Positions 3,301 to 22,487 of a stretch of 64,000 nucleotides of DNA are shown here, piece by piece; position 1 is the first letter of the stretch; every line of letters starts with the position of its first letter. The position numbers were made by a program, and so were the translations under genes. The notes beneath the pieces were generated by a model. That model searched no databases, was not told the DNA's origin, and worked only from the letters and a program-made list of their open reading frames with translations. Source of the stretch: an uncultured Verrucomicrobiae bacterium (GTDB taxonomy: Bacteria; Verrucomicrobiota; Verrucomicrobiia; Chthoniobacterales; UBA10450). The stretch is from assembly GCA_963815455.1 (NCBI GenBank), contig CAWFGO010000001.1:960001-1024000 (forward strand), written 5' to 3'.

Positions 3301-5337
3301 ATGACCGCAGAAAGGGTGACTTTTTATTCTCCCACGCTGGTGCCGGCATTGCACCGCATCCAGCGACAGTTCGGCTATCTAAAGCCGGAGGCCCTCGAGG
3401 AGTTTTCCAAAGAAACGGGCGTGCCGCAGTACCGGCTTCAAGCAGTAGCCAGTTTCTTCCCTCATTTTCTGCTCACTCCTCCTAAGAAAGTTGTGTTGCG
3501 GGTCTGTCGCGATTCGTCCTGCCATTTGGCCGGCTCGGGGAGGATGCTGCGAGAACTGGATGCCTTGACGAGCGAACACGTTGCGATTGAGGGAGTGTCG
3601 TGTCTGGGCCGATGCGATCGAGCGCCGGCAGCGTGCGTCGCGATGCAGGGCCGCGAGCACGATAACTATTATCTCGGCCGATCAGTTGATGAATTAAGGA
3701 CGGTCGTTGCCGCGACTCTCGCTGGTGCGCCGCCAGCGCCAGATCGAGATACGGATCACATCTCGGTGAACGACGACGCCGTGATCGACCCCTACAAAGG
3801 AGAGTCACCCGATTATCGCGCGGTGCGCGCGGCGATAGCGGCGCGCGATGCCTCGCTGAACGGAGCCATCGAAATTCTAAAATCGAAGGCGGGATGGACT
3901 CCGGGAATGCTCGACAACTTCCGGGCCGCGGCCATTCGCCAAATGCGCGTTGATTTCGAATTGGCTCCCCCTGTTCGCGAAGCCGTGCGTCATTGGCAGA
4001 CAGAAAATGACTGGGCCAAAGGTCCGGAGTTGGGCGGCTGGTCCGACATCATTCTTGATGAGATCAAGGAGGCCGATCTCCGTGGACTGGGCGGCGCAGG
4101 AATCCCGGCAGTGCAAAAGTGGCGGGATGTACGCGATGCCGTGCGCACGGCCCGGCTGCGGGAGGAAGACGATCGCGCGTTTATTGTGGTCAATGGCGAC
4201 GAGAGCGAGCCGGGCACATTCAAAGATCGCGAGCTTCTGCTTCGCACTCCTCACCTGATCGTGGAAGCGGTGATCCTGGCGGGCATGATGACCGAGGCCA
4301 CTCAAGGTTTCATATATATTCGCCATGAATACACCGAGCAGATCGAGGCCTGTCGGGCCGAGATTCGCCGGGCGGAGCAGCTCGGCTTTTGCGGCGAAAA
4401 CGCGGCCTCGATTGGACGGCCCTTTCTCGTTTCCGTATTCGTTAGCCCGGGCGGTTATATTTGCGGCGAACAGAGCGCGCTCATCGAGGCCATGTCGGAT
4501 CGGCGTGGCGAGCCGCGAAACATGCCGCCGAAATTGGAGACCAACGGCCTGGAGGACCTTCCCACACTGGTGAGCAACGTGGAAACATTTGCCTGGGTTC
4601 CGTTTATCTGTCTCAACAGCGGAAAAGCATACGCGGAACAGGGAGCGAATAGCTGGAAAGGGCGGCGATATTTTTCTGTCTCGGGCGACGTCAAGCGTCC
4701 GGGTGTTTACGAAGTGCCGATGGGGATGACGCTGCGAGAGTTGATTTACGGCGAGAAATATTGTCAGGGCATCGCGGGCGATAAACAGCTCAAGGGGTTC
4801 GCGCCTTCGGGCCCATCCGGCGGATTTCTGCCGGCGAAACTCAAGGCGAACAAGGGTCTGCCTCGCGATCTTGAAAATAATAAGAGCTGGCAGGCGTTGG
4901 CGGGGCGGCGCGGTCTCAATCCGGTCTCGACCGAGCTCGACATTCTCGATCTCGAGCTGGAGCTAAATCTTTTCCGAGCCTTAAGCCCCACTCAGGCATT
5001 GGGCGCCGGGCTGGTCGTCTACTCGGAAGATCGAGATATGGCCGAGCAAGCCGTAAATTCCGTGGAATTTTTTCGCAATGAATCGTGCGGCAAATGTGTG
5101 CCCTGCCGGCTGGGATCGCAGAAGCTGGCGTCTCTCGGATCGCATCTACTCAACGGAAAGATTGCCGAGCAACACTGGAACGACGAAATTTTTCCAATGA
5201 TTAAAGAGATGGGGCGAGCGATCGAACTGGCCTCGATTTGCGGACTGGGGCGATCGGTCCCGGTGCCTCTCACGACAACCGCCGCCTTTTTCGAAGAAGA
5301 CGTGACCAAGCATCTCTCGACAGGATCGGGAGCCTAA
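3301..5337 (+). CDS. nuoEF: Fused NuoE-NuoF NADH dehydrogenase (diaphorase) module
   Basis: N-terminal thioredoxin-like [2Fe-2S] ligands CRDSSC...CLGRC; NuoF motifs RGLGGAG, NGDESEPGTFKDR, GYICGE, ESCGKCVPCR, SICGLG. Confidence 0.9.
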   Translation: MTAERVTFYSPTLVPALHRIQRQFGYLKPEALEEFSKETGVPQYRLQAVASFFPHFLLTPPKKVVLRVCRDSSCHLAGSGRMLRELDALTSEHVAIEGVSCLGRCDRAPAACVAMQGREHDNYYLGRSVDELRTVVAATLAGAPPAPDRDTDHISVNDDAVIDPYKGESPDYRAVRAAIAARDASLNGAIEILKSKAGWTPGMLDNFRAAAIRQMRVDFELAPPVREAVRHWQTENDWAKGPELGGWSDIILDEIKEADLRGLGGAGIPAVQKWRDVRDAVRTARLREEDDRAFIVVNGDESEPGTFKDRELLLRTPHLIVEAVILAGMMTEATQGFIYIRHEYTEQIEACRAEIRRAEQLGFCGENAASIGRPFLVSVFVSPGGYICGEQSALIEAMSDRRGEPRNMPPKLETNGLEDLPTLVSNVETFAWVPFICLNSGKAYAEQGANSWKGRRYFSVSGDVKRPGVYEVPMGMTLRELIYGEKYCQGIAGDKQLKGFAPSGPSGGFLPAKLKANKGLPRDLENNKSWQALAGRRGLNPVSTELDILDLELELNLFRALSPTQALGAGLVVYSEDRDMAEQAVNSVEFFRNESCGKCVPCRLGSQKLASLGSHLLNGKIAEQHWNDEIFPMIKEMGRAIELASICGLGRSVPVPLTTTAAFFEEDVTKHLSTGSGA

Positions 5338-5351
5338 CTAAACCAAACCAA

Positions 5352-7862
5352 ATGGCTGTACAATCCGATTTCGTCGCCGGGATGTTCGTTCGCGACGATG
5401 ACGAAGGATTATTCAGCCGCGACATCAACGGCCAGCTCGTTCGGTTGGATGCGCCTACCGAATCCGATTACGAAAAAAATGTAACCCTCCAGATCGATGG
5501 CGTGCCGGTTACCGTGCCGCTGGCCGAGCCGTTGACCGATGCCAATGGCAACATCGTCCTCGATTTGCAGGGACGCACCACGCCGCGCTACACCACAATT
5601 TACGATGCCGCTCGCAAGCTTTACGTCGAGCAGGTCGGCGACGAAAAGAAAATTCCGATTCCGGTTCTTTGCCATCAACCCCACATGCATCCGGTCGCCG
5701 TCTGCCGGCTTTGCGTGGTGCAAATCTACGGCCAGAAACGAGGCCGTCGGGCGGCCGAACGCAAGTTACTGCCCGCCTGTCAGCACCAGGTCAGGGATGG
5801 GATGGAAGTCTTCACCATGAATGCGCCGGGGCCCGATGGCGATCGGGTCCGGCAAACTGTGAAAGTCGTGACAGAACTCCTGGCCGCCGATCATCTCAAG
5901 CCAGCGAGTCCCCCCGAGTTGGAGAAGGAACTCGCGGAGTTTAACGAGCTTCGGCAAATGACCGAACGCTGCGGCGCGGACCCATCGCGATTCAAACTGG
6001 ACGTCTTGTCGGATCCGCCGCCGCTGGCGCGGCCGCGGGCCGGGCGGCGCGAGCCCGATTCTTCCTCGCCGGTCTTTCTTGTCGATCACACCGCCTGCAT
6101 TTTGTGCGATCGTTGTGTGCGAGCATGCGACGACGTGAGAGAAAACCACGTCATTGGCCGTACCGGAAAGGGAATCACCGCCGGCATCGGGTTCGATCTA
6201 AACGGTCCAATGGGTCAATCGACCTGCGTTCAATGCGGCGAATGTCTGGTCTCCTGTCCTACTAGTGCGATCACATTTAAGTCCGTCGCTCAGGTCAATA
6301 TTCTCACTCATGACCGTTCGTCAGAAGTGTTGACCGCGAGAGAATTGATCTCCGATCCCATCTTCGCCGGAATTTCATCCAAGTTTTTGCTCTGGCAGCG
6401 GGGCCTGGTCATCCGCCGTCGAGTCCGGGCCGGTCAAATCCTGTGCCGCCAGGGAGATCCCGGCAACACTGCGTTCATCATCCGGCGCGGTAAATTCCAA
6501 GTGACCGTGTTCCCGCGGGCACCCAGATCGGGGCGAGCCGTTTCGTGGTTCGATCGCCGGAAGCCGGTCTTCGAAGCGCAAGTGACTCCCGCGGATATGA
6601 TCCTCGGCGAAATGGCGTGTCTGAGTGGATCGCCTCGATCGGCCAATGTCACCGCGCTCGAAGAAGGCGAAGTCTGGGAGATTCGTCGCAATGTCCTCGA
6701 CCGGCTGATGCGACTTCCCAGCCAACGGCAGCGTTTTGAATCTGAATACCGGGAGCGCTCCCTGGATCTCGCTCTGCAGGACACCGATTTGTTCAAGGGA
6801 ATCGAGCCGGGTGAATACGGCCGGATCGTGGATTTTCTTCGACACCGCCTCGTCTTCGTTCGAGTTCACGCCGGGCAAACTCTCTTCGAGTATGGCGACG
6901 TCGCGACTCACATGTATTTCGTTCGGCTGGGGCACGTCCGTATCAGCGTTCCTCAACACGGCCGCGAGGCCAAGGTCATTTCGTCCGGGCCGGGCGCAGT
7001 TCTTGGCGAGATCGGGTTACTCGCCTTAACTCCAGCCGATGAACGAAAAACGGCCGATGAAGTCGATCGCGCGGTGAAAGCAGCGCTCGATCAGGCGGGC
7101 GACGACCTGACCCGGGTTTTTCCGCCAGGCCACCGTTCCGCAACCTGTTCTGCCTTGAATCATCTGGAATTGACTCAGCTTAGCCGCGCAGATTTTCTCG
7201 AGATGTTGCGCAAGTTCGGCGTGCTGCGCCGACGAATCGTCGAACAATCTCTCGCCCGGTTACACAGCTCAACCGTGGGTCATCGCCTCCTCGATGAGTA
7301 CGTCGCCCAGGGTCTTTACGAGGGTCAAAGCGTTCTCGTTCTCGACCTGGATAATTGCACCCGGTGCGACGCCTGCACCCAGGGCTGTGTCGAGCAACAC
7401 GGGACCGCCACCCACGGTATCCCAATCCCGCGCCTTCTCCGGGACGGACGGCGCCTGGATAACTTTCTGGTCGCGACCTCCTGTCGATCCTGCACCGATC
7501 CGCATTGCATGGTCGGATGTCCGGTCGACTCGATTCATCGAGGCAAGCACCTGCAAATCGTCATCGAAGATCATTGCATCGGCTGTGGCTTGTGCGCCGA
7601 AAACTGTCCCTACGGCAGCATCTTCATGATTCCTAACGAGCGACATCGCTTCGCCGTGGCCGATGTGGGACACGCCGGACAAACGCACCTGGTCGGTCAA
7701 CTCAAGGCCGCTAATTGCGATCTCTGCGATGCCAGAGGCGACCTATCCTCGCCCGACCCAGCATGCGTAGCCGCATGTCCACACGATGCCGCCTTCCGTA
7801 TGACCGGCCCCCAACTGCTCGAGCGCGTCATGAAATCGCACGTCCACGAAACGGACTGGTGA
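5352..7862 (+). CDS. NuoG/HydA-N-like Fe-S protein fused to two cNMP-binding domains and a 4x[4Fe-4S] ferredoxin
   Basis: [2Fe-2S] LCH..VCRLC..LPAC; CILCDRCVRAC and CVQCGECLVSCP; two cNMP domains (GEMACL..PRSANV; GEIGLL..RSATC); 16-Cys C-terminal DmsB/NrfC-type domain. Start taken at ATG 5352. Confidence 0.85.
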   Translation: MAVQSDFVAGMFVRDDDEGLFSRDINGQLVRLDAPTESDYEKNVTLQIDGVPVTVPLAEPLTDANGNIVLDLQGRTTPRYTTIYDAARKLYVEQVGDEKKIPIPVLCHQPHMHPVAVCRLCVVQIYGQKRGRRAAERKLLPACQHQVRDGMEVFTMNAPGPDGDRVRQTVKVVTELLAADHLKPASPPELEKELAEFNELRQMTERCGADPSRFKLDVLSDPPPLARPRAGRREPDSSSPVFLVDHTACILCDRCVRACDDVRENHVIGRTGKGITAGIGFDLNGPMGQSTCVQCGECLVSCPTSAITFKSVAQVNILTHDRSSEVLTARELISDPIFAGISSKFLLWQRGLVIRRRVRAGQILCRQGDPGNTAFIIRRGKFQVTVFPRAPRSGRAVSWFDRRKPVFEAQVTPADMILGEMACLSGSPRSANVTALEEGEVWEIRRNVLDRLMRLPSQRQRFESEYRERSLDLALQDTDLFKGIEPGEYGRIVDFLRHRLVFVRVHAGQTLFEYGDVATHMYFVRLGHVRISVPQHGREAKVISSGPGAVLGEIGLLALTPADERKTADEVDRAVKAALDQAGDDLTRVFPPGHRSATCSALNHLELTQLSRADFLEMLRKFGVLRRRIVEQSLARLHSSTVGHRLLDEYVAQGLYEGQSVLVLDLDNCTRCDACTQGCVEQHGTATHGIPIPRLLRDGRRLDNFLVATSCRSCTDPHCMVGCPVDSIHRGKHLQIVIEDHCIGCGLCAENCPYGSIFMIPNERHRFAVADVGHAGQTHLVGQLKAANCDLCDARGDLSSPDPACVAACPHDAAFRMTGPQLLERVMKSHVHETDW

Positions 7863-7890
7863 TTTTCTGGGCGCCGCTAGGGTTGCCCCT

Positions 7891-7939
7891 GGAGGGACAT
7901 GCTTCCGCATGTCCGGGACGCGCCGAAGCGCGTCCCTCC
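7891..7939. repeat. REP-like palindrome between convergent genes
   Basis: GGAGGGAC...GTCCCTCC ends with internal hairpins GGACATGC/GCATGTCC and GGGACGCG/CGCGTCCC. Confidence 0.6.
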
Positions 7940-7969
7940 GCCTGAACAGAACCTCGACGTCGGAAGAGG

Positions 7970-8653
7970 TTAACTTGCGGAAGGTGGCCCGGCTGGCGGC
8001 GATATACCCGGCGCCGATGTTGAGCCTGATGTTGTAGCCGCCTCGCTCTGTCGAGGCGAAGGTGCAGCACTTGGCGTTGTGGCCGCCTTTGCCGCGGCCG
8101 CTTCCGCGGCGGCTTTCTTCTTTGCTTCCGCCGCAGCCGCGGCTTGAGCAAGGTTTGCATCGACATCGGCAGCTTCGATCGGATGAATCTTGTGATAATA
8201 ACCGTTCGATTTCGCGAGATCGTTCTTGCGCATCAGCAACGCATCGAAGCGCTCCCGCGTACTCAATTCGAAATCCTTATCCATCTTGATCGCTTCGAAC
8301 GGGCAAACCTCGACGCAAATCTGGCAGCTCATGCACACCGATATGTCGATGTCGAACACCGCCGGATAAAACTGCGGTTTGCCCAGGTAATCGGGCTTTT
8401 TGTCTTCGCTCTTAATAATATAGATGCACTGCGGCGGGCATTCCTTCTCGCAAATCTTGCACGCCACACAGCGCAAACCCGCCTCCGGGTCGTCGGTGTC
8501 GTAAATCAGAAACGGAAAGTTCCGGTAATTTTCCGGCAACGGGTTCCGCTCTTCCGGATATTGCACCGTGATCAGCCGATCCTTTTCGAAATAACTCCCG
8601 GCGAAGTTACGCAACGTAACCGCCATGCCCTTGAGTATGCCTGTGCCGATCAT
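7970..8653 (-). CDS. nuoI: NADH-quinone oxidoreductase subunit I with an Ala/Pro-rich tail
   Basis: TVQYPEE, CVACKICEKECP, CMSCQICVEVCP. Confidence 0.93.
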   Translation of the reverse strand: MIGTGILKGMAVTLRNFAGSYFEKDRLITVQYPEERNPLPENYRNFPFLIYDTDDPEAGLRCVACKICEKECPPQCIYIIKSEDKKPDYLGKPQFYPAVFDIDISVCMSCQICVEVCPFEAIKMDKDFELSTRERFDALLMRKNDLAKSNGYYHKIHPIEAADVDANLAQAAAAAEAKKKAAAEAAAAKAATTPSAAPSPRQSEAATTSGSTSAPGISPPAGPPSAS

Positions 8654-8660
8654 GCGATTC

Positions 8661-9869
8661 TCATCGATCCACCTCTCCCATGACGATGTCGATGCTGCCG
8701 AGAATGACCATCACATCGGCCACAGTATGGCCAAGGCACAAATCTTCGAGGACGGTCAGATTGATAAAACTTGGCGGACGGACCCGGTAACGATAAGGGT
8801 TCGCGCTGCCGTCGCTGATTAAATAAAAGCCGAGCTCGCCCTTTGGTGCTTCGATCCGCCCATACGCTTCGCCCACCGGCGGTTTGAACGCGCGAATCTT
8901 CACCTTTGGATTCGCGATTGGCCCCGGTTGAATCTGGGAGAACGCCTGCTTTAAAATTTCGATGCTTTCGCGCATCTCCAGCGCGCGCATCATTAAGCGA
9001 TCGTAGGTGTCGCCATGATCTCCCAGCGGGACCCGAAACTTGAATCGGGGATAAATTCCGTAGCCATCGACTTTGCGTACATCGTAATTTACCCCGCAGG
9101 CGCGAAGCATCGGGCCGGTGATGCCAGCGTTGATGGCGAGCTCGGCCGACATTTTTCCCACGTTCTGGGTCCGCGCGATCACGATCTCGTTTTGCAAAAT
9201 CAGTTGTTCGAACTCATCGAGAAACTTCGGGAAAGCATCGACAATCTTCTTCGCGCGGCCAAGCCAGGCATCGTCGGCATCGACTCGGCAGCCGCCGAAC
9301 CGCATGTAATCGCACATCATCCGCGAGCCGGCGAGCGATTCGAACAGATCGAGAATTTTTTCGCGTTCTCGAAAGGCATACATCAGCGGCGTGCCCCACG
9401 CCCCCATGTCGCTCAGCAAGAATCCGAGCAGCGAGGCGTGATTCTGCAGCCGGGTCAGCTCAGCCAGAATGACGCGCAAATATTCGGCGCGTTCGGGAAC
9501 TTCGATCCCGGCCAGTTTCTCTACGCTGAGCGCATAGGCCCAGTTGTTCGTCATCGAACAAAAATAATCGAGCCGGTCGGTGTACGGCATCGAGCCGAGA
9601 TAACTCGTGTTCTCGCCGATCTTTTCGTGATTCCGATGCAGGTAGCCGAAAACCGGCTTGAGCTTGCGCACAATCTCGCCTTCGAGCGCGACGTTCATCC
9701 GAAACACGCCGTGAGTCGATGGATGTTGCGGTCCCATCGACACTTCGAGCAACTCGCCGTCGAGTGAAGACGTCATCCCGAGCGCAGTCGAGGGATCCCG
9801 TTGCGTAACCTTAAAGCTATCGCCGCGGGATCCGTCGACTACGCTTCGCTCTGCTCGGGATGACATCAT
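8661..9869 (-). CDS. nuoD: NADH-quinone oxidoreductase subunit D
   Basis: MGPQHPSTHGVFR, GYLHR, DRLDY, EAPKGELG and C-terminal GEVDR; no NiFe CxxC motifs. Confidence 0.95.
   Translation of the reverse strand: MMSSRAERSVVDGSRGDSFKVTQRDPSTALGMTSSLDGELLEVSMGPQHPSTHGVFRMNVALEGEIVRKLKPVFGYLHRNHEKIGENTSYLGSMPYTDRLDYFCSMTNNWAYALSVEKLAGIEVPERAEYLRVILAELTRLQNHASLLGFLLSDMGAWGTPLMYAFREREKILDLFESLAGSRMMCDYMRFGGCRVDADDAWLGRAKKIVDAFPKFLDEFEQLILQNEIVIARTQNVGKMSAELAINAGITGPMLRACGVNYDVRKVDGYGIYPRFKFRVPLGDHGDTYDRLMMRALEMRESIEILKQAFSQIQPGPIANPKVKIRAFKPPVGEAYGRIEAPKGELGFYLISDGSANPYRYRVRPPSFINLTVLEDLCLGHTVADVMVILGSIDIVMGEVDR
9772..9864. repeat. 93-bp palindromic element in frame in the nuoD 5' end
   Basis: Perfect 12-bp terminal inverted repeats GTCATCCCGAGC/GCTCGGGATGAC; related to the element at 55013-55192. 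Confidence 0.8.
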
Positions 9870-10558
9870 TGGGCCGTAATATTTTCAGCGCCGTCCAGTT
9901 GCGGTCGCTGTGCGTAATGCCCTTTGGCTCGCTCCAATACTTCATCGTGCGGGGTCGGCTCGTATTCGTAATCGTCCGGATCGCGATAATCTTTCCGCAT
10001 CGGGAAGTCCTCGAACTCGTCCCACATCAAGATCCGCCGCAAATCCGGATGACCATCGAAATGAATCCCATAAAGATCGAAAATCTCGCGCTCTTGAAAT
10101 TCGGCGCTACGCCAGATCGGGGTGAGCGACGGAAGTCGCGCGCCCTCCCTGCGATCGGCCGTCCGCAGTCGAATGATGATCGGGCCGTGTCCGCCGCTGG
10201 ACGGATTCGCCGTGGCGAACTTGAGCGTCATCGAAAAGAGGTGATACACCGCCTCGAGATAGCCCGGGATTTTTTCTTCCGTGGTTTGGTCCACTTCCTT
10301 CTCGACGCCCTCAACGATCGTTTTCACTTTGCTTGTCTTCTTCACCGTGCGATCGAGCCAATCGACTCCGGTCACGTTCGAACAATGATCGAGTCGCAAT
10401 TCTGGATCGTCGCGCAGAAACTTTGCGACCGCGCCCGCATGTTCGTTGTCAATCAAGAGCGACGATTGTTGCGCCGGCCCGGGATTAACGACGATGTCGA
10501 TCTTCGCTCCGGGCATCGTTGATTCGGCGCGCGCTTTGATTTGCTCGAGTGTTTCCAT
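9866..10558 (-). CDS. nuoC: NADH-quinone oxidoreductase subunit C
   Basis: VTGVDW, EREIFDLYGIHFDGHPDLRRIL, FPMRKD. Confidence 0.95.
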   Translation of the reverse strand: METLEQIKARAESTMPGAKIDIVVNPGPAQQSSLLIDNEHAGAVAKFLRDDPELRLDHCSNVTGVDWLDRTVKKTSKVKTIVEGVEKEVDQTTEEKIPGYLEAVYHLFSMTLKFATANPSSGGHGPIIIRLRTADRREGARLPSLTPIWRSAEFQEREIFDLYGIHFDGHPDLRRILMWDEFEDFPMRKDYRDPDDYEYEPTPHDEVLERAKGHYAQRPQLDGAENITAQ

Positions 10559-10569
10559 TAGTCAGTGCC

Positions 10570-10661
10570 AAGGTGGATCGGCCTCTCCGAGGACGATGCT
10601 AAAAATAATGCGGCTTCGCCGCCAAATTCCAACATCGCGCTCGGAGATCGCGATCCACCTT
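10570..10661. repeat. REP-like palindrome between nuoB and nuoC
   Basis: AAGGTGGATCG...CGATCCACCTT terminal inverted repeats; a related half-copy lies at about 59885-59914. Confidence 0.7.
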
Positions 10662-11282
10662 TCATCGCTCAATTTTCATCGGACGAAACACATCCGGGTT
10701 CGCCGGCGGTTCCAAATCGTGTTTGCCAAACGCCGGCACCGGAAATTCGCTCGGCTGAGTTCGATCCAGATGCGGGGCCTTTTTGTCGCCGGTCAATTTT
10801 TGTTCGTCGATCTTGCGCTGCAATTCCATGAACGCGTGGAGCAACGCTTCCGGCCGCGGCGGGCACCCGGGAATGTAAACATCGACAGGAATGTAACGAT
10901 CGATCCCTTTGAGCACGTTGTAACCCTGCTTGAACGGTCCGCCGGAAATCGCGCAGGCGCCCATCGAGATCACATATTTCGGATCGGGCATTTGGTTGTA
11001 AAGCCGGACAATTTGCGGCGCCATTTTTTTGGTCACAGTCCCGGCCACGATCATGAGATCGGCCTGACGCGGCGATGGGCGAAACACTTCGCCGCCGAAT
11101 CGGGCGATATCGTAACGCGATGCCGCGGTCGCGATCATTTCAATCGCGCAACAGGCCAGGCCAAACTGCAACGGCCAGATCGAATTCTTCCGGCCCCAGT
11201 TGTAAAGCTCCTGCACCGACGTCACCCAGATTCCTTGCCTTTGAAGCTCGCTGCGCAGCCCCTCGTCAATTTGGTTATTCAT
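10662..11282 (-). CDS. nuoB: NADH-quinone oxidoreductase subunit B
   Basis: [30 protein letters not shown]. Confidence 0.96.
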
Positions 11283-11292
11283 CCGATTTCAC

Positions 11293-11342
11293 TGTAGGGC
11301 GTCTCTGTGAACCCCGAAAGCGTTCGGGGCTGACGCCCTACA
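11293..11342. repeat. GTAG-type REP palindrome between nuoA and nuoB
   Basis: TGTAGGGCGTC...GACGCCCTACA with an inner CCCCGAA/TTCGGGG hairpin. Confidence 0.75.
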
Positions 11343-11351
11343 ACCTCCGAT

Positions 11352-11726
11352 TCATCTGCCCCACTGTAAACAACCTTTGCCCCAGGCCCAAACCAGACCT
11401 TCGATCAATAGCAGTAAAAAAACGAGAAGGGCGATGAACGCGCCGATCGGCAACCCGGTGAACGCCACGGCAAACGGCACCAGAAAAATCGCTTCCACGT
11501 CAAAGATCAGAAAGATGATCGCGTAGAGATAATACTTCGATTGAAACTGCACGTGCGCTTCGCCAATCGATTCCACGCCGCATTCGTAGGTCGCGTTCTT
11601 CTCCAAGCCCGGCTTCGGCGGCTGAAAAAAACGTCGCCACAGCCAGGCCAGCGCCAACGGGGCCAGCGGAAAAGCCAGCGCCACGCCAACAAAAATGACG
11701 ATAAAAAGGTAAGGATTGGGACTCAT
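11352..11726 (-). CDS. nuoA: NADH-quinone oxidoreductase subunit A
   Basis: YECG, FLIFDVE, three TM helices, KG.L.W end. Confidence 0.95.
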   Translation of the reverse strand: MSPNPYLFIVIFVGVALAFPLAPLALAWLWRRFFQPPKPGLEKNATYECGVESIGEAHVQFQSKYYLYAIIFLIFDVEAIFLVPFAVAFTGLPIGAFIALLVFLLLLIEGLVWAWGKGCLQWGR

Positions 11727-11781
11727 CGAATCTCGATCAAATTCGCTCGGAAAGATGTGCTGCCAAGTCTATAATTGGGTT

Positions 11782-11958
11782 GTGGACAAGACGGTAAAAA
11801 AATTCCGGAGTTTTGACGAGGCCGAAAAGGCCGATCGCGCTTTTTACAAGAAGCTCACCGGCAACCAACGACTGCAGATTCTGCTCGAACTTCTAGACCA
11901 TGCGCCTGACCAACGACTCGAGAGAGTTTCTCGAATTACTAAACTCCCGCGGCGTTGA
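11782..11958 (+). CDS. Small protein upstream of a nucleotidyltransferase (antitoxin-like partner)
   Basis: GTG start 6 nt after TATAAT; MDKTVKKFRSFDEAEKADRAFYKKLTGNQRLQILLEL; overlaps the next gene. Confidence 0.55.
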   Translation: MDKTVKKFRSFDEAEKADRAFYKKLTGNQRLQILLELLDHAPDQRLERVSRITKLPRR

Positions 11959-12343
11959 TTATATCATCGTCGGCGCGCACAGCCTGGCGTTCCACGGACG
12001 TCCACGCTATACCGGCGATCTCGATATTCTCGTGCGGGCCACATCGGAAAACGCCGGCAAACTCGTCCAGATCTTGAATCAATTTGGGTTCGAGCGGTCT
12101 GGCTTCAAGGAATCTGACTTCACCGAGCCGGAGCAGATGATCCAGCTTGGTCGTGTCCCCAGCCGGATCGATCTACTCACCACTATCAGCGGCGTCACGA
12201 ATGACGAAGCTTTTGCTACAAGGATTTCGGCCGACATCGATGGCATTTCCGTTTTCGTTCTAAGCAAGGATCTACTAATTCGCAATAAACGCGCCGTCGC
12301 TCGACCACAGGACTTGGCTGATCTCGATGCGCTGGAGCATTGA
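11900..12343 (+). CDS. Minimal nucleotidyltransferase (pol-beta superfamily)
   Basis: IVGAHSL..HG.PRYTGDLD and C-terminal NK.A..RPQDLADL. Confidence 0.8.
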   Translation: MRLTNDSREFLELLNSRGVDYIIVGAHSLAFHGRPRYTGDLDILVRATSENAGKLVQILNQFGFERSGFKESDFTEPEQMIQLGRVPSRIDLLTTISGVTNDEAFATRISADIDGISVFVLSKDLLIRNKRAVARPQDLADLDALEH

Positions 12344-12388
12344 GTTTTGCTTGATTGCGCGTGAGGCAATCGCTTTCCTTCATCGAAG

Positions 12389-13576
12389 ATGAGCGATGCT
12401 GTCGATCAGATCTTCGTCCGAGCGAAAGAATGGTTACTCTCGTTTCTCGCCGGCGCGCCTGACTGGATCGTCCAGATCGCCTCGGCCTTGATCAACATTT
12501 TCACGCTCCTCGGAGTGTTCCTGACGCTCTTCGCGCTGATGTCGGTGCTGGAGAGAAAAATTCTGGGGCGGATGCAAAATCGCTACGGACCGAATCGAGT
12601 TGGGCCGTTCGGACTTTTCCAGCCGGTCGCTGACGGCATTAAGATGCTGATCAAGGAAGACATCGTGCCCGCGCGGGCGGACAAGATCGTGCATTTCCTG
12701 GCGCCGATCCTGATCGCGGCGGCGGCGATTCTCGCTCTCGGCGTAATTCCCTATGGCCGAAACATGACGCCGTTTAGCATCGATGGCGGCATTTTGTTTT
12801 TCTTCGCCGTTGGATCGACCACCGAACTCGCGGTTTTCATGGCCGGTTGGGGCAGCAACAATAAGTTTTCGATGCTCGGCGCAATGCGGGCGATCGCGCA
12901 GATGATCAGTTATGAATTGCCGTTGATTATCACGGTGATTCCGGTCGTGATGGTTGTCGGTTCGCTCACGCCCGACGCGATTGTCTCGGCGCAAGGCGGC
13001 TACACATTTGGAATTGTGCCGCGCTGGTTCGTGTTCACCCCGTGGGGCGCGGCCGCGTTTATTTTGTTCTTTGTTTCAGGCCTGGTCGAATCGAACCGTA
13101 CCCCGTTCGATGTGCCAGAAGGGGAATCGGAAATTGTCGCCGGTCACATGACCGAGTATTCCGGCTTCAAATACGCCACGTTTTTTCTGGCCGAATACCT
13201 TGGCATGTTCGCGGTCAGCGGGCTCGCCATCACATTGTTTCTCGGCGGCTGGCACCCGCCGCTCCGCGTCCTCGAATTTGTTCCCTCCTACGTTTGGTTT
13301 TTCGCGAAGTTGTCGATCCTGCTTTTTGTTTATGTCTGGCTCCGTGGAACTCTGCCGCGCACCCGAGTCGATCAGATGATGAATTTTGCCTGGAAATTCA
13401 TGCTGCCGATGGCATTCACCTGCATGATCGCCGCCGCCGTGTGGCATTATGCCGGACGCGGCTTGCGCGGCTGGCTTTGGTCGCTTGTCGTGGTCGCGAT
13501 TGTTTATGTAATCTTGTCGATCCTGCTCGACACGCGGCGAAAATTTGCGCCGCGCACATATCGTTTTGCCGAATGA
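12389..13576 (+). CDS. nuoH: NADH-quinone oxidoreductase subunit H
   Basis: ERK..GRMQNRYGPNRVGP.G..QP.AD.IK..KE, QMISYE, NRTPFD.PEGESE. Confidence 0.96.
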   Translation: MSDAVDQIFVRAKEWLLSFLAGAPDWIVQIASALINIFTLLGVFLTLFALMSVLERKILGRMQNRYGPNRVGPFGLFQPVADGIKMLIKEDIVPARADKIVHFLAPILIAAAAILALGVIPYGRNMTPFSIDGGILFFFAVGSTTELAVFMAGWGSNNKFSMLGAMRAIAQMISYELPLIITVIPVVMVVGSLTPDAIVSAQGGYTFGIVPRWFVFTPWGAAAFILFFVSGLVESNRTPFDVPEGESEIVAGHMTEYSGFKYATFFLAEYLGMFAVSGLAITLFLGGWHPPLRVLEFVPSYVWFFAKLSILLFVYVWLRGTLPRTRVDQMMNFAWKFMLPMAFTCMIAAAVWHYAGRGLRGWLWSLVVVAIVYVILSILLDTRRKFAPRTYRFAE

Positions 13577-14055
13577 ACAGCGTCGCCTTCGTCTTCATCG
13601 CGATTTTCATTCTGGCCGCGGCGCTCGCCGCCGCCACGCTAAAGAAGTTGATGCACGCAGCGCTCAGTTTCGCGCTCGCGCTCGTCGGCCTGGCTGCGTT
13701 TTTCTTTCTCCTCGGTGCTGAGTTCGTGGGCCTGGTGCAAATCTTCGTTTACATCGGCGCGGTCGCGGTCCTGATCGTGTTCACAATCCTGCTCACGCGA
13801 CGCGAAGCGGAAAAGGACCATGGATTCAACTGGGGCGGCGCTGTTATCGCTGTCGCCGTTTTCGGAGGATTGATTTGGGCGATCTCCCGAACGCAATTGC
13901 TCGCAGTGGGCGCGCCACAAATGGAAGCGCTCACCGTGAAGGGAATTGGCGAAACATTGATGACGAGTTATGTATGGCCGCTGCTTTGTGTCGGCCTCCT
14001 GCTTACCGCCGCGCTGATTGGCGCACTCATTCTGGTGATGGAGGACAAGCGGTGA
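13573..14055 (+). CDS. nuoJ: NADH-quinone oxidoreductase subunit J
   Basis: AEFVGLVQIFVYIGAVAVL; ATG overlaps the nuoH stop (ATGA). Confidence 0.92.
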   Translation: MNSVAFVFIAIFILAAALAAATLKKLMHAALSFALALVGLAAFFFLLGAEFVGLVQIFVYIGAVAVLIVFTILLTRREAEKDHGFNWGGAVIAVAVFGGLIWAISRTQLLAVGAPQMEALTVKGIGETLMTSYVWPLLCVGLLLTAALIGALILVMEDKR

Positions 14056-14232: not shown

Positions 14233-14543
14233 ATGAATCCCACCTTGCAAACCTTCCTCATCGTTTCAGCGGCGTTGTTCTCCATCGGCTTGCTTGCCGT
14301 CCTGAGCCGGCGTCATGCAATCTTCATTTTGATCGGCATCGAAATGATGCTGGCGGCGGCGAATCTAAATTTCATCGCCTTCTGGCGGTTCGGCCCCGAA
14401 CCGCACCCGCCGACCGGCGTGATCGTCTCAATTTTTTCAATCGCCATCGCCGCCGCCGAGGCCGCCGTGGGACTCGCACTCGTGATCGCCGTTTATCGTC
14501 ACTACCGCACGACCAACGTCGATCAACTCGATCGACTCAAAGG

Positions 14544-14547
<4 letters not shown>
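14233..14547 (+). CDS. nuoK: NADH-quinone oxidoreductase subunit K
   Basis: IEMML.A.NLN, IAAAEAAVGLA. Confidence 0.95.
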
Positions 14548-16516: not shown

Positions 16517-16529
<13 letters not shown>

Positions 16530-17989
16530 TCACAGCGCTCATCGTTATTCCGATCGCTGGCGCGCTCGGCCTTTACATCGGCCGCCCGCGAAATCCGCGC
16601 GTGATCGCGCTGCTCTTCAACGCACTCGCGGCGTTTTACGCGTTCATGCTGTGGCAAAAATTCGATACCCACGCCGCAGGCCTGCAAATCGTCGAGCGCC
16701 ACGAATGGATTCCAACCATCGGCGCCGAATATCTCGTCGGTGTCGATGGGCTGAGCCTGCTGCTCGTTCTGCTGACCACGCTCATCATTCCATTCGGGCT
16801 GCTGGCCCAGCGATTGGAGCGCGGAGCGTGCGCGCTGATGTTGATCACGCAATCGGCCCTCTATGGCACGTTCACCGCCCAGAATTTTGTCCTTTGGTTC
16901 TTGTTTTACGAGATGAGCCTGATCCCGGCGTTCCTGCTCATTAAGATCTGGGGCGGAGAAAACCGGGACCGAGCCGCGACGAAATTCTTTCTTTATACAT
17001 TCCTCGGCAGCATCGCCATGCTGCTGAGCTTTCTCGGCATTTACTTCGCGAAAGGAACATTTGATTTCGCGACTCTGGCCGATCTCGGAAAAGGTGGCCT
17101 GCTCACCGGCAAGTTCGCCTGGCTCGCCTTTGCCGGAATTTTTCTCGGACTCGCGGTCAAGGTTCCACTGTTTCCATTTCATACCTGGCTGCCCGACGCC
17201 TACGAAACCGCGCCTACCGGCGTGTCGATGGTCCTGACCGGCCTGCTTTCAAAAATGGGCGTTTACGGTTTCGTGCGCCTTTTGCTTCCGCTTTTTCCTA
17301 ACGAAATCAAAATCCTCGGCCCATGGCTGCTGGCGCTGGCGGTCTGTTCGATCGTGTTCGCCCCGCTGGCCGCGTGGGCCCAGCGGGATTTGAAACGCAT
17401 GGTCGCCTACCTGTCGATCAACCATCTCGGTTATTGCATGCTTGGCTTGTTCGCCATCACCGCAGGATCGACATCCTCGTCGATCGATACGCACGCCGCA
17501 TTGAGTGGCGTGTTCCTGCAAATTTTCAATCACGGCATCACCGCCGCCGCTTTGTTTTACTTCGTCGGCTTGCTCGAACAACGCCGCGGCCTGCGCGGTA
17601 TCGACGATTTCGGCGGGCTGATGCAGCGAACGCCGTTGCTCTGCGGCTGGATGAGCGTGGCCATGTTTTCGTCGCTCGGTCTGCCGGGCTTGAACGGATT
17701 CATTGGCGAATTTCTCATTTTCAAAGCCTCGTTCGCCATGGTCGCTTCGTTCACGGCGGTGGCCGTGCTCGGGCTGCTGGTCACGGCAATTGTTTTTATG
17801 CGAATGATGCAATCGCTCTTCAGCGGACCGCTCAGCGAGAACTGCAGCGGATTCCCCGATCTTCTTCAGAGTGAAAAAATTATCATCGTGCCGGTCACGC
17901 TGCTCATGTTCGCCATCGGCATCGCGCCGCAGTTCATGTTCAGCATCTTCAACACAACGGTCGCCCAAATGGCGCGACTATTTGCCTGA
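16517..17989 (+). CDS. nuoM: NADH-quinone oxidoreductase subunit M (copy 1)
   Basis: VKVPLFPFHTWLPDAY, LSKMGVYG, NHG, GLPGLNGFIGEF. Confidence 0.93.
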
Positions 17990-18000
17990 GGTTTGATGGA

Positions 18001-18110
18001 ATGAGTAAGGCAATCATCCCGATTGAGCGCATCGCTCAGCGAATTCTTGTCTTGCGCGGTGAGAAAGTACAAGGGACCGCCATGTTGTCGAGTGTATTCA
18101 ATTGCAATCG
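18001..18110 (+). pseudogene. ORF6N-domain gene remnant with an internal deletion
   Basis: IPIERIAQRILVLRGEKV is joined directly to QGTAMLSSV.N; these motifs are normally far apart in ORF6N proteins. Confidence 0.6.
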
Positions 18111-18112
18111 GA

Positions 18113-18263
18113 TTGGGAAGCGCACGCGCCTCCCGTGCTGGCGATGGCGCCCTCGCCATCGCGAACTTTTTCTCAGCATTTCACCGTTGGGTTCCGACAA
18201 TTCGTCAAAGACTTTTCGGCGAGGGCGCCGAAAAGAACACGCGAGGCGCGTGTGCTCCCCAGA
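18113..18263. repeat. GGAGCAC-family palindromic element directly before the second nuoM ATG
   Basis: GGGAAGCGCACGCGCCTCCCGTG...CACGCGAGGCGCGTGTGCTCCCCAGA, with inner GGCGCCCTCGCC/GGCGAGGGCGCC. Confidence 0.75.
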
Positions 18264-19748
18264 ATGATCGCCTGGACCATTTACATCACCTTTGGCGGCG
18301 CAATCGCGCTGCTGTTCCTGCCGCGTGCGATGTCGCGTTGGAACGCGCTTGCCACCGCGGCGGCCGGACTGGCTGTCAGTCTGGCTACATTCTTCCAAAC
18401 GCCGATTGTCGATCTTGCGCAGTTCCAAACAGTCGTGAACGTGCCGTGGGTGCCGATTCTGGGGATGAATTATCATCTCGCGGTCGATGGCATCAGCCTG
18501 ACCCTCGTTTTGGTCACGGGCATCACCGCCGTGAGCGCCGTGCTCTTTTCGTGGGATGTCGATCATCGCCAGAATGAATTCTTTTTCTGGCTTTTGCTCG
18601 TGGTCGGCGGCTCCTACGGCGTCTTTCTCAGCGCCGATCTCTTTTTGCTCTTCGTGTTCTACGAACTGGTGATCGTGCCGAAGTATTTTCTCATCGCGAT
18701 CTTTGGCTCGACGAACAAGGAGTATGGCGCAATGAAGCTGACTCTTTATTCGTTCTTCGGCGGCGCGCTCGTTTTTATCGGGATCGTCCTCGCTTATGCG
18801 ACGTCCGGCTCGCTCGACATTGTCGGCTTGTCCCGTTTTCAATTTGAGCCCGAAATCCAAGAGTGGGCGTTTCCCGTTTTGTTTATCGGATTCGCTGTTC
18901 TGGCCGGCATTTGGCCATTGCATACTTGGGCGCCGACCGGCCACGTGGCCGCGCCGACTGCAGGATCGATGTTGCTTGCCGGGATCGTCATGAAGCTCGG
19001 CGGCTACGGCGCGCTGAGGGTCGCCATGAATATTTTCCCGGACGGTTTCCACATGTGGAGCAAATGGATCGCCGTCTTCGCCGTGATCGGGATCGTTTAT
19101 GCCGCCGGCGTAGCGCTCCGGCAACGCGATCTGAAATTCGTCATCGGGTATTCGAGCGTCAGCCATATGGGTTTTGTGTTGCTCGGCCTGGCTACGGCGA
19201 ACGCTCTTGGCGTCTCGGGCTCGGTGCTGCAGATGTTTTCCCACGGCGTGATCGGCGCTCTGCTCTTCGCCGTAGCTGGACGGATGATTTATAGCCGCAC
19301 CCACACGCGCAATCTCGATGAATTGTCGATGTTGCAACTGAATCGCGCTTTGCCGTTTGCCGCGTTTACGTTTGTGATTGCATCTGCCGCGTCGATGGGA
19401 ATTCCCGGGTTCAGCGGGTTCGCGGCTGAAATCACCATCCTTATCGGCACGTGGAAAACCTACCCGGCGGCGGTATTTATCGTCGGCGCAGGCATGGTGC
19501 TGGTGGGTGCGTTCACGCTGCGCGCGTTGAAGAGAGCTTTTTTCGATAGCGCCGTTTCGGCAGATGGAGGAACGCGCCCAATATGGTCCGACAAATCTGC
19601 ACAAAATTTGCCGCCGATCACCCTGGTCGAGAAACTGGGAGCCGGCCTGCTCATGTTCGCGACCCTCGCCGTTGGACTTTATCCGAAACTATTGCTCGAT
19701 CGCATAATGCCCGCGATTGAGACAATGCGTTTTCTTAATCCCCATTAA
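18264..19748 (+). CDS. nuoM: NADH-quinone oxidoreductase subunit M (copy 2, divergent)
   Basis: DGISL.L, FYE, WPLHTWAP.GHVAAP, MKLGGYG, YSSVSHMG, SHG, GIPGFSGF.AE; start ATG 18264. Confidence 0.9.
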   Translation: MIAWTIYITFGGAIALLFLPRAMSRWNALATAAAGLAVSLATFFQTPIVDLAQFQTVVNVPWVPILGMNYHLAVDGISLTLVLVTGITAVSAVLFSWDVDHRQNEFFFWLLLVVGGSYGVFLSADLFLLFVFYELVIVPKYFLIAIFGSTNKEYGAMKLTLYSFFGGALVFIGIVLAYATSGSLDIVGLSRFQFEPEIQEWAFPVLFIGFAVLAGIWPLHTWAPTGHVAAPTAGSMLLAGIVMKLGGYGALRVAMNIFPDGFHMWSKWIAVFAVIGIVYAAGVALRQRDLKFVIGYSSVSHMGFVLLGLATANALGVSGSVLQMFSHGVIGALLFAVAGRMIYSRTHTRNLDELSMLQLNRALPFAAFTFVIASAASMGIPGFSGFAAEITILIGTWKTYPAAVFIVGAGMVLVGAFTLRALKRAFFDSAVSADGGTRPIWSDKSAQNLPPITLVEKLGAGLLMFATLAVGLYPKLLLDRIMPAIETMRFLNPH

Positions 19749-20115: not shown

Positions 20116-20238
20116 GAGGCGACAGAATCACACGCGGCCAACGCAAGCGCAATCACCTCTCGACGGATCTGCGCAGGGAACGAAAAGGCCGGCTCTTGGA
20201 GCCGGCCTTCAGGAGGAAACAGTAATTCTATATCGGCC

Positions 20239-20805
20239 CTAGTTCTGAGCGATTAAGGTCGTGGAAGCGCGGAATTTCTTGCTCCCGGCGTAGGCGTAAA
20301 GTGGGACATAGCAGTTGCGGCGAATTTTCTCGGAGCGAGTCGCGGTATGATTGAACGTGGGATCCAGGACGTAGCTACCACTGTCGGTCTGCCATTCGAG
20401 CCAGGCGTGGGTCCGGCGGCTCGTCGGAGCGCGTTTCCCAATGACCAAACGAAGATGGGTCGCACCCTGGCTTTTCATTCTTTTATAAAGGGCGACCGCT
20501 TTGCCTTTGCAGTCGGCCGGTCGCCGTGACTCCACCTCAGCTGGCGTTCTCCAGACCTTTTGGAAACCGTAGGGAATATCACGCAGATCGCTCATCCAGA
20601 TGTTTACCAAGGCAAGTGAGGTATGATCTGTTGAGGAGCCGGCTGTGGTCAGGACCTCGCGAATAGGGGTCATTTGGCGATCATAGGGGGTGCCTTTGAC
20701 GGTCAGCATCAAAGCGTCGGCAAAAGTGTTTGCGGCAGGCAGGCCGACGAGTATAAAGGCTACAAGGAGAGCTGGTTGGATCTTGGAGAGGCTTATATGT
20801 TTCAT
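20239..20805 (-). CDS. Secreted transglutaminase-like cysteine protease, paralog 2
   Basis: TPYDRQM, WRTPAEV..ADCKGKAVALY, THAWLEW and YVLDPTF are shared with 2502-3140. Confidence 0.75.
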   Translation of the reverse strand: MKHISLSKIQPALLVAFILVGLPAANTFADALMLTVKGTPYDRQMTPIREVLTTAGSSTDHTSLALVNIWMSDLRDIPYGFQKVWRTPAEVESRRPADCKGKAVALYKRMKSQGATHLRLVIGKRAPTSRRTHAWLEWQTDSGSYVLDPTFNHTATRSEKIRRNCYVPLYAYAGSKKFRASTTLIAQN

Positions 20806-20824
20806 ACTAATTATAATTACCATA

Positions 20825-20840
20825 AGCATTGCCCATGCCA
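20825..20840 (-). promoter_or_regulatory. sigma54-like -24/-12 promoter
   Basis: TGGCATGGGCAATGCT. Confidence 0.7.
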
Positions 20841-21011
20841 GATCCCAGGGGAGAAGTTCTACTGGATTGCGAGCCCGGATCGTGACGGCGTTAGGCCCGA
20901 AGTGGAGGCCCGACGCGACCAGCGCTGGCAATCCGTTTTGTCAGAGCGACGCGCATCGCCCTGAAGACGTAGTTAATTCGATTCTCGCTTTTTCAGGACG
21001 TAATCCGTTCA

Positions 21012-22487
21012 ATGAAGCCAATGTATCTCGATCTTTTCAAGCTCGCGTCGCCTGAAGCGGTCGTCGCTCTGTTGGCGCTCGTTACGCTCGCGATCGGGCT
21101 CGCAAGTGCCCGCGCATCGGCGCTCTGTTCATTCGTTGCCGCGGTCGGACTCATTATCGCGATCGCCGCCGTGCTCATGCTCCCACAACACGCCACGCTG
21201 TTCGGCGGAATGCTCGTAATTTCCCCGCTGACCTCGCTTTTCAAAATCATCTGCCTCGTACTGGCCTTTTTCACGGTGATTCTGGCGAACAGCGACCGCA
21301 CCTCGCGCAACCATGGCGAATATCTCTCGCTCCTCCTGCTCGCGACAATCGGGCTGATGCTCCTGGTAGGGAGCGAAGAGCTGTTAATGATCTTCATCGG
21401 GCTCGAACTCACCGGCCTCTCGCTTTACGTCATGGCCGCTTTCGACAAGACCGACATCCGTTCAGCCGAAGCCGGCCTGAAATACTTTTTGTTCGGCAGC
21501 ACCGCCAGCGCCTTCACGCTTTTTGGAATCAGCCTGGTTTACGGCCTGACCGGCAGCACCGGGCTCGGAGCGATTGGCCACAGCCTTGCCGCCGGCTCGC
21601 TCCAGCCGCTGCTCGCCGCCGGCATTATCATGACCCTCGTTGGATTTGCCTTCAAGATCGCTGCCGCGCCCTTCCATCTCTGGGCGCCTGACGCATATCA
21701 GGGCGCGCCCATCCCGAGCGCGGCATTTATCGCGTCCGGATCGAAAGTCGCGTCGTTTGTCGTGCTCGGAAAAATTACTCTCCTGGGTTTTGGCCCCGCG
21801 CATGGCAGCGCCGACTGGCACGAAATGGTTGCCGGATGGGCGCCGGTACTCGGCGCTCTAGCCGCATTGTCGATCCTGTTAGGCAATCTTGTTGCGCTGG
21901 CCCAGTCCAATGTCCGTCGCTTGCTGGCCTATTCGGCCGTCGCCCATGCCGGGTACACTTTGCTCGGCCTGGTCGCCGGCACTCACAACGGATTTTCCGC
22001 GACGTTATTTTACACCACCACCTACGCAATCACGCTCGTCGGCGCATTTGGTGTTGTCGGCCTGGTTCGGCGCGAAACCGGCGGCGACGATTTGCAGAAT
22101 TTCGCCGGGTTGTCGTCGCGCTCGCCGCTGCTGGCGGGTTGCATGTCGATCTTCATGCTCTCGCTGGCGGGCCTGCCACCTCTGGCCGGATTTTTCGGGA
22201 AATTCTATTTGTTCAGCGCAGCGCTGCAGGCCGGCGCAAATCGCGGCCTGCTTTGGCTCGTGGCGCTCGCCCTCCTCGGCAGCATCATGTCCCTCTATTA
22301 TTATTTGATCGTGCTAAAAGTGATCTTCACCAGCACCGATCCGCGCTCAGCCACGCAATCCCTCAACCACTCACACTCCTCTGCCTGGTTGCAACAAATC
22401 GCGACAACCGCGCTTGCCGCCGCTGTTTTGCTGCTCGGAATAATGCCGTCTGCGCTGGTCGCCCGCATCGCAATAGCACTCCCCTAG
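21012..22487 (+). CDS. nuoN: NADH-quinone oxidoreductase subunit N
   Basis: SAEAGLKYF, FKIAAAPFHLWAPDAYQGAP, LLAYSAVAHAGY, SLAGLPPLAGFFGK. Confidence 0.95.
   Translation: MKPMYLDLFKLASPEAVVALLALVTLAIGLASARASALCSFVAAVGLIIAIAAVLMLPQHATLFGGMLVISPLTSLFKIICLVLAFFTVILANSDRTSRNHGEYLSLLLLATIGLMLLVGSEELLMIFIGLELTGLSLYVMAAFDKTDIRSAEAGLKYFLFGSTASAFTLFGISLVYGLTGSTGLGAIGHSLAAGSLQPLLAAGIIMTLVGFAFKIAAAPFHLWAPDAYQGAPIPSAAFIASGSKVASFVVLGKITLLGFGPAHGSADWHEMVAGWAPVLGALAALSILLGNLVALAQSNVRRLLAYSAVAHAGYTLLGLVAGTHNGFSATLFYTTTYAITLVGAFGVVGLVRRETGGDDLQNFAGLSSRSPLLAGCMSIFMLSLAGLPPLAGFFGKFYLFSAALQAGANRGLLWLVALALLGSIMSLYYYLIVLKVIFTSTDPRSATQSLNHSHSSAWLQQIATTALAAAVLLLGIMPSALVARIAIALP

Follow-up and report, generated by a model that had tools for sequence, protein, structure and literature searches.

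The DNA analyzed here is a window of 64,000 nucleotides from an uncultured Verrucomicrobiae bacterium (Chthoniobacterales; UBA10450; assembly GCA_963815455.1, contig CAWFGO010000001.1, positions 960,001 to 1,024,000). Two gene sets meet in it. The first is a cassette of two genes, which encode a fused NuoE-NuoF-like flavoprotein (NuoEF) and an 836-residue protein combining iron-sulfur (Fe-S) clusters with two cyclic nucleoside monophosphate (cNMP) binding domains. The second is a set of nuo genes for a complex I with two NuoM subunits (2M complex I). An earlier note on this DNA had described the cassette as a cyclic-nucleotide-gated electron-input module of that complex I. The analysis points elsewhere: positions 3301-7862 probably encode the cytoplasmic half of a transmembrane redox chain like those of the Ptd and PCC4 clusters, and the adjoining 2M complex I is probably unrelated. 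Loci, genomes, proteins and contigs that must be told apart are labelled L, G, P and C.

The NuoEF and Fe-S/cNMP proteins

The architecture proposed for the 836-residue protein, [2Fe-2S]-2x[4Fe-4S]-cNMP-cNMP-4x[4Fe-4S] next to a fused NuoEF, was borne out by Pfam and by alignment. Pfam placed Fer2_4 at residues 42-156, Fer4 at 248-307, two cNMP_binding stretches (E 3.9e-31) after these and a Fer4 domain at the C-terminus. All 28 cluster-ligand Cys residues were invariant in 126 aligned homologues: C107, C118, C121 and C143 for the [2Fe-2S] cluster, eight Cys from C249 to C302 for the two [4Fe-4S] clusters and 16 Cys from C669 to C809 for the last four. As the note had also said, no molybdopterin or H-cluster family matched in Pfam, with PF00384 and PF04879 absent, and the protein scored 46.5 bits against TIGR01973 (cut-off 470). 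The same Pfam search found no DNA-binding, kinase or cyclase output domain. In a predicted model (mean pLDDT, the predicted local confidence score, of 71.7) the head was NuoG/HoxU-like, with a Z score of 13.5 to mycobacterial NuoG by fold comparison. The C-terminal domain resembles the 4x[4Fe-4S] subunits of the HydN/DmsB/FdnH type, which dock on membrane cytochrome subunits. Residues 417-754 also match a PtdE-like gene of the same genome at 29% identity.

One cluster of NuoG is missing from this head. The stretch that aligns with the N5 site of canonical NuoG contains no Cys, so that all three N5 Cys are gone, and the His/Cys3 motif of N5 was found in 0 of 59 divergent full-length homologues. 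PF10588 is likewise absent, and is present in the canonical NuoG of this genome. In NuoG, N5 hands electrons to N6a of the NuoI homologue (PMC8577454).

At E<=1e-20 the family takes in 1003 of 8000 candidate proteins, and it occurs in 43 of 301 family genomes. Relatives with names were mostly metagenome-assembled genomes of Chthoniobacterales, with Acidobacteria and Planctomycetes more distant, and no characterised member was found in the literature search. In two 895-residue headless variants (L112:7160-9847 and L113:7722-10406) the cNMP domains are separated by Trp/Pro-rich repeats, and the Fer4 tail contains an insertion.

The cNMP domains occupy about residues 337-470 and 480-640. In pocket 1 (GEMACLSGSPRSA) G419, E420 and R429 were invariant in 96 sequences; in pocket 2 G552 was invariant and E553 and R595 were kept in at least 90% of these sequences. 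The first phosphate-binding cassette also holds a conserved Cys (GEMxC). The predicted model matched cyclic-nucleotide-binding (CNB) domains with Z scores up to 18 for SpIH and SthK, and the regulatory (R) subunits of protein kinase A (PKA) were matched as well. It is thus likely that the 836-residue protein binds a cyclic nucleotide. The CNB fold and phosphate-binding cassette are common to tandem CNB regulators such as PKA R subunits, CNG/HCN/SthK channels and the Rv0998 acetyltransferase. However, known CNB regulators control a kinase, channel, transferase or DNA-binding domain, whereas the putative target here is an iron-sulfur chain. It is fairly improbable that the cNMP folds exert no second-messenger control and serve as structural spacers or as sites for another small ligand. 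Such a role would accommodate a 33-residue insertion in pocket 2 and the fact that the fold matches include ligand-free or nucleoside-binding CNB proteins. It does not account well for the Gly-Glu and Arg of both pockets, which are retained from Verrucomicrobia to Planctomycetes. Forms that lack the NuoG head ("short forms") keep both pockets too, and the insertion is absent from pocket 2 in these and in planctomycete forms. Because both pockets are intact, ligand gating is still plausible.

NuoEF carries N1a ligands at C69, C74, C101 and C105 and N3 ligands at C596, C599, C602 and C647. Together the two proteins keep the ligands of the FMN (flavin mononucleotide) site, N3, N1a, N1b and N4 of the electron-input (N) module of complex I, and we infer their cofactors from these motifs. 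NuoEF has the non-bifurcating TFK motif, Tyr rather than Phe in the FMN loop, and no Fer4 domain in Pfam. Bifurcating Bfu and HydABC enzymes have an AFM motif, Phe in the FMN loop and extra C-terminal Fe-S domains on subunit B (PMC12018979). Electron bifurcation was therefore rejected.

The dinucleotide pocket of NuoEF is altered in two positions. First, Gln391 replaces the Glu of the YICGEE loop of NuoF, with YICGEQSAL in 50 of 50 homologues; in NfnB the replaced Glu, a position matched here by motif, selects NADH over NADPH (PMC12018979). Secondly, Lys411 stands at an otherwise conserved aromatic position and is Lys in 43 of the 50. In the alignment, HydB of T. kivui has Ser at the position of Gln391 and Arg at that of Lys411, and the T. 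kivui enzyme reduces NADP+ and not NAD+ (PMC8578170). By this parallel NuoEF, too, probably prefers NADP(H). The FMN, N3, N1a, N1b and ferredoxin-type cluster motifs are common to diaphorase modules of the NuoEFG, HoxEFU and HydABC types, and the best PDB matches of the cassette proteins were HydB, NuoF and the N-termini of HydA and FdsA. The cassette differs from all three types in lacking N5, any catalytic or molybdopterin-like domain and the AFM motif, and in its altered nucleotide pocket, added tandem cNMP domains and DmsB-like 4x[4Fe-4S] tail.

The NuoEF gene lay directly upstream of the Fe-S/cNMP gene in 62 of 66 loci, and the other four were cut by contig ends. In addition, P0143 holds NuoE, NuoF, the NuoG head, two cNMP domains and the Fer4 tail in one chain of 1483 residues, with the GEQ motif kept. 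Thus, NuoEF and the Fe-S/cNMP protein form one unit, as the earlier note had supposed. An Acidobacterium locus carries a second, broken pair (L052:19201-22440) 7 kb from the intact one.

The adjoining complex I and gene linkage among relatives

Profile searches found the core subunits A, B, C, D, H, I, J, K, L, M and N at the window locus. Both NuoM proteins exceeded the TIGR01972 cut-off (457 and 419 bits versus 264), so the claim of 11 core subunits plus a second NuoM stands. Compared with the canonical NuoL of the same genome, the window NuoL shows a 26-column insertion, common to three of three aligned relatives, and a NuoL amphipathic helix lengthened by about 26 residues is a hallmark of 2M complex I (PMC9040806; further characters are described in PMC6606698 and PMC7117926). 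The window nuo genes encode an ordinary 2M complex I, an already known four-pump type. The likeness to the form of Chadwick et al. 2018 (via the same three papers) covers the second nuoM, the additional 26 residues in NuoL, nuoBCDI apart from the membrane genes and an operon without nuoEF. As these sources describe them, the Nitrospira clade 3 form lacks nuoH, which is retained here, and nuoC and nuoD are separate in the window, unlike in the Chloroflexi form. The gene order L-M1-M2-N was kept in 19 of 20 relatives' 2M loci. The genes are split further in two family genomes, one with nuoM2-nuoN alone (L074) and one with nuoH-N apart from nuoABCDI (L080). None of 21 NuoM2 sequences has Lys before the PxHTW motif, where NuoM1 usually reads VKVP; all 21 have Lys near the Glu of transmembrane helix 5 instead (PKYFL). 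The canonical NuoM of this genome likewise lacks Lys before PxHTW.

Canonical nuoE, nuoF and nuoG are missing from this locus, as had been noted, but not from the genome, where a second, canonical complex I is encoded by nuoD-EF-G-H-I-J-K-L-M-N at C1:125809-139741, with nuoB and nuoC on C3 and nuoA on C2. The 2M loci of 20 relatives (at most 20 kb each, nuoI visible in 14) contained neither cassette gene and no nuoEFG. Judged from gene content, the 2M complex I has no dedicated N-module here, as in most of the family.

Gene linkage and co-occurrence were examined in 66 GTDB loci (32 with full flanks), 251 genomes of the order and 301 family genomes. The linkage counts used 41 family genomes with the long protein, the form that has the NuoG head; G388 was left out. 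The C-terminal module of the Fe-S/cNMP protein was counted at E<1e-40. Five weaker matches were set aside, and the two of these that were inspected were canonical ptdE.

It is very improbable that the cassette is a cNMP-gated N-module of the 2M complex I, for several reasons. First, the adjacency to nuo genes seen here recurs in one of the 66 loci (L004, the same genome as G281); nuoI was found in 33 of the 41 family genomes and lay within 10 kb of the unit in one of the 33. Homologue linkage, which the earlier note had set beforehand as its test, was almost never to nuo genes and was to multiheme cytochrome genes instead. Secondly, the two systems seldom co-occur. The long protein was present in 3 of the 49 order genomes with 2M NuoM2, and 2M NuoM2 in 3 of the 17 with the long protein; among 31 family genomes 30 have 2M NuoM2 and two have the cassette unit. 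Third, the head resembles NuoG (Z 13.5), yet N5 is missing. Fourth, the 2M operon is without its own nuoEFG in the 20 relatives' loci, but five 2M relatives that lack the cassette have a single NuoF each, the canonical one. Lastly, the cassette converges on nuoI from the opposite strand, as the note had recorded, across a 107-bp gap, and is absent from the same spot in G270 despite 2M nuoI and nuoD there. Linkage, co-occurrence, G270 synteny and the N5 motif are all contrary, and the complex I partnership was rejected.

The G270 comparison also bears on how the cassette came to lie beside nuoI. The genus has one other genome, G270, in which nuoD-nuoI run straight into genes matching window positions 2532-3171 and 2-1909, and where the long protein was not found. 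The block at 3266-7876 is 80% identical by blastn to the block beside nuoI in L004, with sharp borders. By this comparison the cassette is an insertion next to nuoI in this lineage. It may reflect a single gain followed by loss in G270, or a horizontal move. The cassette has a GC content of 0.58-0.59 and, at third codon positions (GC3), 0.65-0.66; the values for the nuo genes are 0.56-0.60 and 0.65-0.73. Since these are close, composition gives no sign of foreign origin.

The genes that do accompany the unit encode a membrane protein and cytochromes. A gene for a membrane protein of 300-350 residues was found in 39 of the 41 family genomes and lay within 10 kb in 32 of them. Among the 32 full-flank loci it was present in 20, a decaheme cytochrome in 20, a c554-like tri/tetraheme cytochrome in 21, a large 10-heme LVIVD protein in 16 and nuo genes in one. 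For example, in L006, L008 and the Acidobacterium locus L107 the NuoEF, Fe-S/cNMP, membrane-protein and decaheme genes form one co-directional run. In the 251 order genomes the C-terminal module was found in 42, the membrane protein in 42 and both in 41. There is one copy of the module per genome, with the long form in 17 and the short form in 25. The short form lies directly upstream of the membrane-protein gene in 13 of 14 inspected loci, and likewise in G270; in the exception, G171, it is encoded on another contig. The headless variants of L112 and L113 are not linked to a membrane-protein gene. The membrane-protein gene was detected in 16 of the 17 long-form genomes of the order, as well as in 18 of 19 that had been chosen because their locus did not show it.

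This membrane protein matched no Pfam family, and Atlas gave only unnamed clusters. It contains the motif WxxxH-x13-H twice (W93/H97/H111 and W320/H324/H338, invariant in 25 sequences) and SGxxG, the features on which two b hemes were proposed in PCC4 (PMC5566968).

Relation to Ptd/PCC4 clusters and the proposed redox path

The closest relatives in published work are two cluster types. The ptdABCDEFG cluster, whose function is given as unknown by its authors (bioRxiv 10.1101/2023.11.21.568154), shares a cNMP-binding Fe-S protein (PtdE), a ferric-reductase-like membrane protein (PtdF) and a decaheme cytochrome (PtdG). In subgroup II of PCC4 (He et al. 2017, PMC5566968), an Fe-S gene precedes the gene for an inner-membrane protein that bears the two WxxxH-x13-H motifs and SGxxG, and 4- and 10-heme cytochromes are also present. 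Given the cNMP/Fe-S core and the linkage to a PCC4-type membrane protein and decaheme cytochrome, the 836-residue protein is an extended PtdE, and, on gene content, the cassette is a variant of these clusters, themselves uncharacterised, with NuoEF as its input.

Several features set the cassette apart from these clusters. The window protein adds the NuoG/HoxU-like head, and a dedicated NuoEF replaces the flavin adenine dinucleotide (FAD)/NAD oxidoreductase PtdC: NuoEF stood in place of PtdC in 62 of the 66 loci, and an FNR-like gene lay near the unit in nine. Unlike ptd as described in its preprint, the cassette family has no linked pentaheme PtdA or recognisable PtdB porin; the clusters of relatives have the 10-heme LVIVD protein and an unclassified protein of 600-700 residues, possibly a porin, where Ptd/PCC4 has a pentaheme cytochrome and a porin. 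The main text of the PCC4 paper, in which the word "cyclic" occurs 0 times, proposes quinone exchange and Fe(II) oxidation, and as described there, outside its domain-architecture figure, PCC4 has no NuoEF-type input. No description of the NuoEF-fed form was found in a literature search with subscription journals and the ptd supplements outside its scope, in which the ptd and PCC4 papers alone proved relevant.

A path for electrons can be proposed from these parts. Electrons from NAD(P)H, most likely NADPH, would enter at the FMN of NuoEF and pass through N3, the [2Fe-2S] cluster and two [4Fe-4S] clusters to the four C-terminal [4Fe-4S] clusters. From there they would reach the two b hemes of the membrane protein and then the periplasmic deca- and tri/tetraheme cytochromes c. 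The path could run either way. The two cNMP domains would be placed between the halves of the Fe-S wire, and cAMP or cGMP, once bound, would either bring the halves close enough for tunnelling or draw them apart, or would govern how the wire docks on the membrane protein. There is good reason to expect that the cassette proteins physically partner the membrane protein and cytochromes; that a cyclic nucleotide gates the flow is given somewhat less than an even chance. The proposal in its entirety is rather less likely than not: an NADPH-specific NuoF-type input feeding two wire halves, joined by tandem cAMP/cGMP sensors, across the membrane to multiheme cytochromes, with exchangeable heads (NuoEFG-like, full fusion or none) on one sensor-wire core in abundant soil Verrucomicrobia, Acidobacteria and Planctomycetes.

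The known targets of cyclic nucleotides in bacteria are transcription factors, channels and modifying enzymes. A sensor inside an electron wire, if confirmed, would put redox flow under the direct control of a second messenger. The uncharacterised Ptd/PCC4 clusters would also gain a definite electron donor on the cytoplasmic side, and an assay that is simple to run. The result also disposes of a false lead: these bacteria have no N-module dedicated to their 2M complex I.

A number of observations weigh against the transmembrane chain. First, the counts have limits: kin are not independent, so the co-occurrence figures overstate the association and are to be taken as a pattern and not a p-value, and in 10 of the 32 full-flank loci no cytochrome-cluster gene was nearby. 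Secondly, the membrane-protein tree shows no clean split into partners of the long and short forms. Third, short forms exist without any flavin input, a state equally compatible with sensing or with a different donor. Fourth, the model has pLDDT below 50 in Fe-S regions (257-297 and 710-756), and the 33-residue insertion interrupts the phosphate-binding cassette of the second cNMP domain. Fifth, class III cyclase genes flank 12 of the 32 full-flank loci, but cyclases are common in these genomes (12 matches in this one), so nearby cyclase genes are weak evidence. Lastly, distances of 280 kb and 530 kb separate the cassette from its partner genes in this genome. The membrane-protein gene and a decaheme gene lie at C1:1245978-1248522, and no cNMP/Fe-S gene precedes them; a triheme cytochrome gene is at C1:1500203-1501363 and a 10-heme LVIVD block at C1:558-564 kb. 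In a tree of 41 proteins, this membrane protein is sister (99/100) to the one linked to the short form in G270, so the long form here seems to have replaced a short one. With scattered partners and this sister relation, the pairing in this genome is argued from exclusion and from the pattern seen across the family.

The short forms raise the question of a redox sensor rather than a bulk conduit, in which the wire would report on redox conditions, either of the NADP(H) pool or of the periplasm, and the cNMP domains would combine this reading with second-messenger signalling. Flavin-less short forms are as common as the long form (25 versus 17 of 251), and cyclase genes at 12 of 32 full loci, Ser/Thr kinase genes flanking the planctomycete clusters and the conserved Cys of the GEMxC motif would all suit such a role. 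Against it, the protein has no DNA-binding, kinase or cyclase output domain. Seven clusters, a membrane cytochrome and 10-heme chains are also a large investment, typical of conduits. A sensor is unlikely.

The scattered partners raise another question, namely whether the cassette is detached here, as a soluble cNMP-regulated NAD(P)H:ferredoxin/flavodoxin diaphorase or a recently moved orphan. The sharp borders of the block and the descent of the local membrane protein from a short-form operon are in keeping with this. No membrane protein was detected in G217, which has the module, but G217 is a bin of 680 contigs with 8% contamination. Both open reading frames (ORFs) of the window are intact with every ligand present, and the membrane protein occurs in 16 of 17 long-form order genomes and 18 of 19 picked genomes. 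A detached cassette is accordingly improbable, and the transmembrane chain is preferred.

This genome also has a separate canonical ptd/PCC4 cluster (L090, C1:446470-457570) with genes for an FNR-Fer2 protein, a porin-like unclassified ORF, pentaheme and tetraheme cytochromes, PtdE, PtdF and a decaheme cytochrome. Its PtdE is frameshifted near the 3' end, possibly by assembly error. A further region, C1:553114-568405 (L089), encodes an HbpS-like protein, an unclassified protein of 600-700 residues, a frameshifted 10-heme LVIVD protein, an FNR/CysJ-like flavoprotein and a class III cyclase with a HAMP domain; these genes flank the cassette in many relatives.

Features of the window and neighboring genes

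Table 1. Genes and features between the transglutaminase-like gene and nuoN, with window positions.
Feature	Position	Strand	Basis or remark
Transglutaminase-like gene	2502-3272	-	Directly adjoins nuoI in G270 and L084; left border of insertion
Two-gene cassette, whole extent, ~4.6 kb	3266-7876		blastn versus L004 and G270
Fused NuoE-NuoF-like flavoprotein, 678 residues	3301-5337	+	PF01257, PF01512, PF10531, PF10589; motifs in 50 homologues; alignments to solved NuoF/HydB
Fe-S/cNMP protein P0001, 836 residues	5352-7862	+	N-terminally extended PtdE relative
nuoI of 2M complex I, converges on cassette	7970-8653	-	Family profile matches
nuoD	8661-9869	-	Family profile matches
nuoC	9866-10558	-	Family profile matches
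nuoB	10662-11282	-	Family profile matches
nuoA	11352-11726	-	Family profile matches
nuoH	12389-13576	+	Family profile matches
nuoJ	13573-14055	+	Family profile matches
nuoK	14233-14547	+	Family profile matches
nuoL with 26-residue insertion in C-terminal amphipathic helix	14544-16529	+	Versus the genome's canonical NuoL
nuoM1	16517-17989	+	TIGR01972, 457 bits
nuoM2, second NuoM	18264-19748	+	TIGR01972, 419 bits on longer ORF 18102-19748; start inferred
nuoN	21012-22487	+	Two minus-strand ORFs between nuoM2 and nuoN

A scan of positions 2300-12600 for promoters and terminators gave no excess over shuffled sequence (2 versus 4.2; 14 versus 12.5). The ORF at 11900-12343, between nuoA and nuoH, is nucleotidyltransferase-like with a weak DUF2204 match, and a similar ORF occupies the same place in L083. 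Transglutaminase-like cysteine peptidase paralogues lie beside the nuo region (2502-3272) and within it (20239-20931), and relatives likewise have one transglutaminase-like gene adjoining nuoI or nuoN. At the 5' end of nuoD (about 9770-9869) the first 33 codons match an unrelated site, C1:1476022-1476120, at 64%, which points to a small dispersed repeat lying within nuoD or ahead of it.

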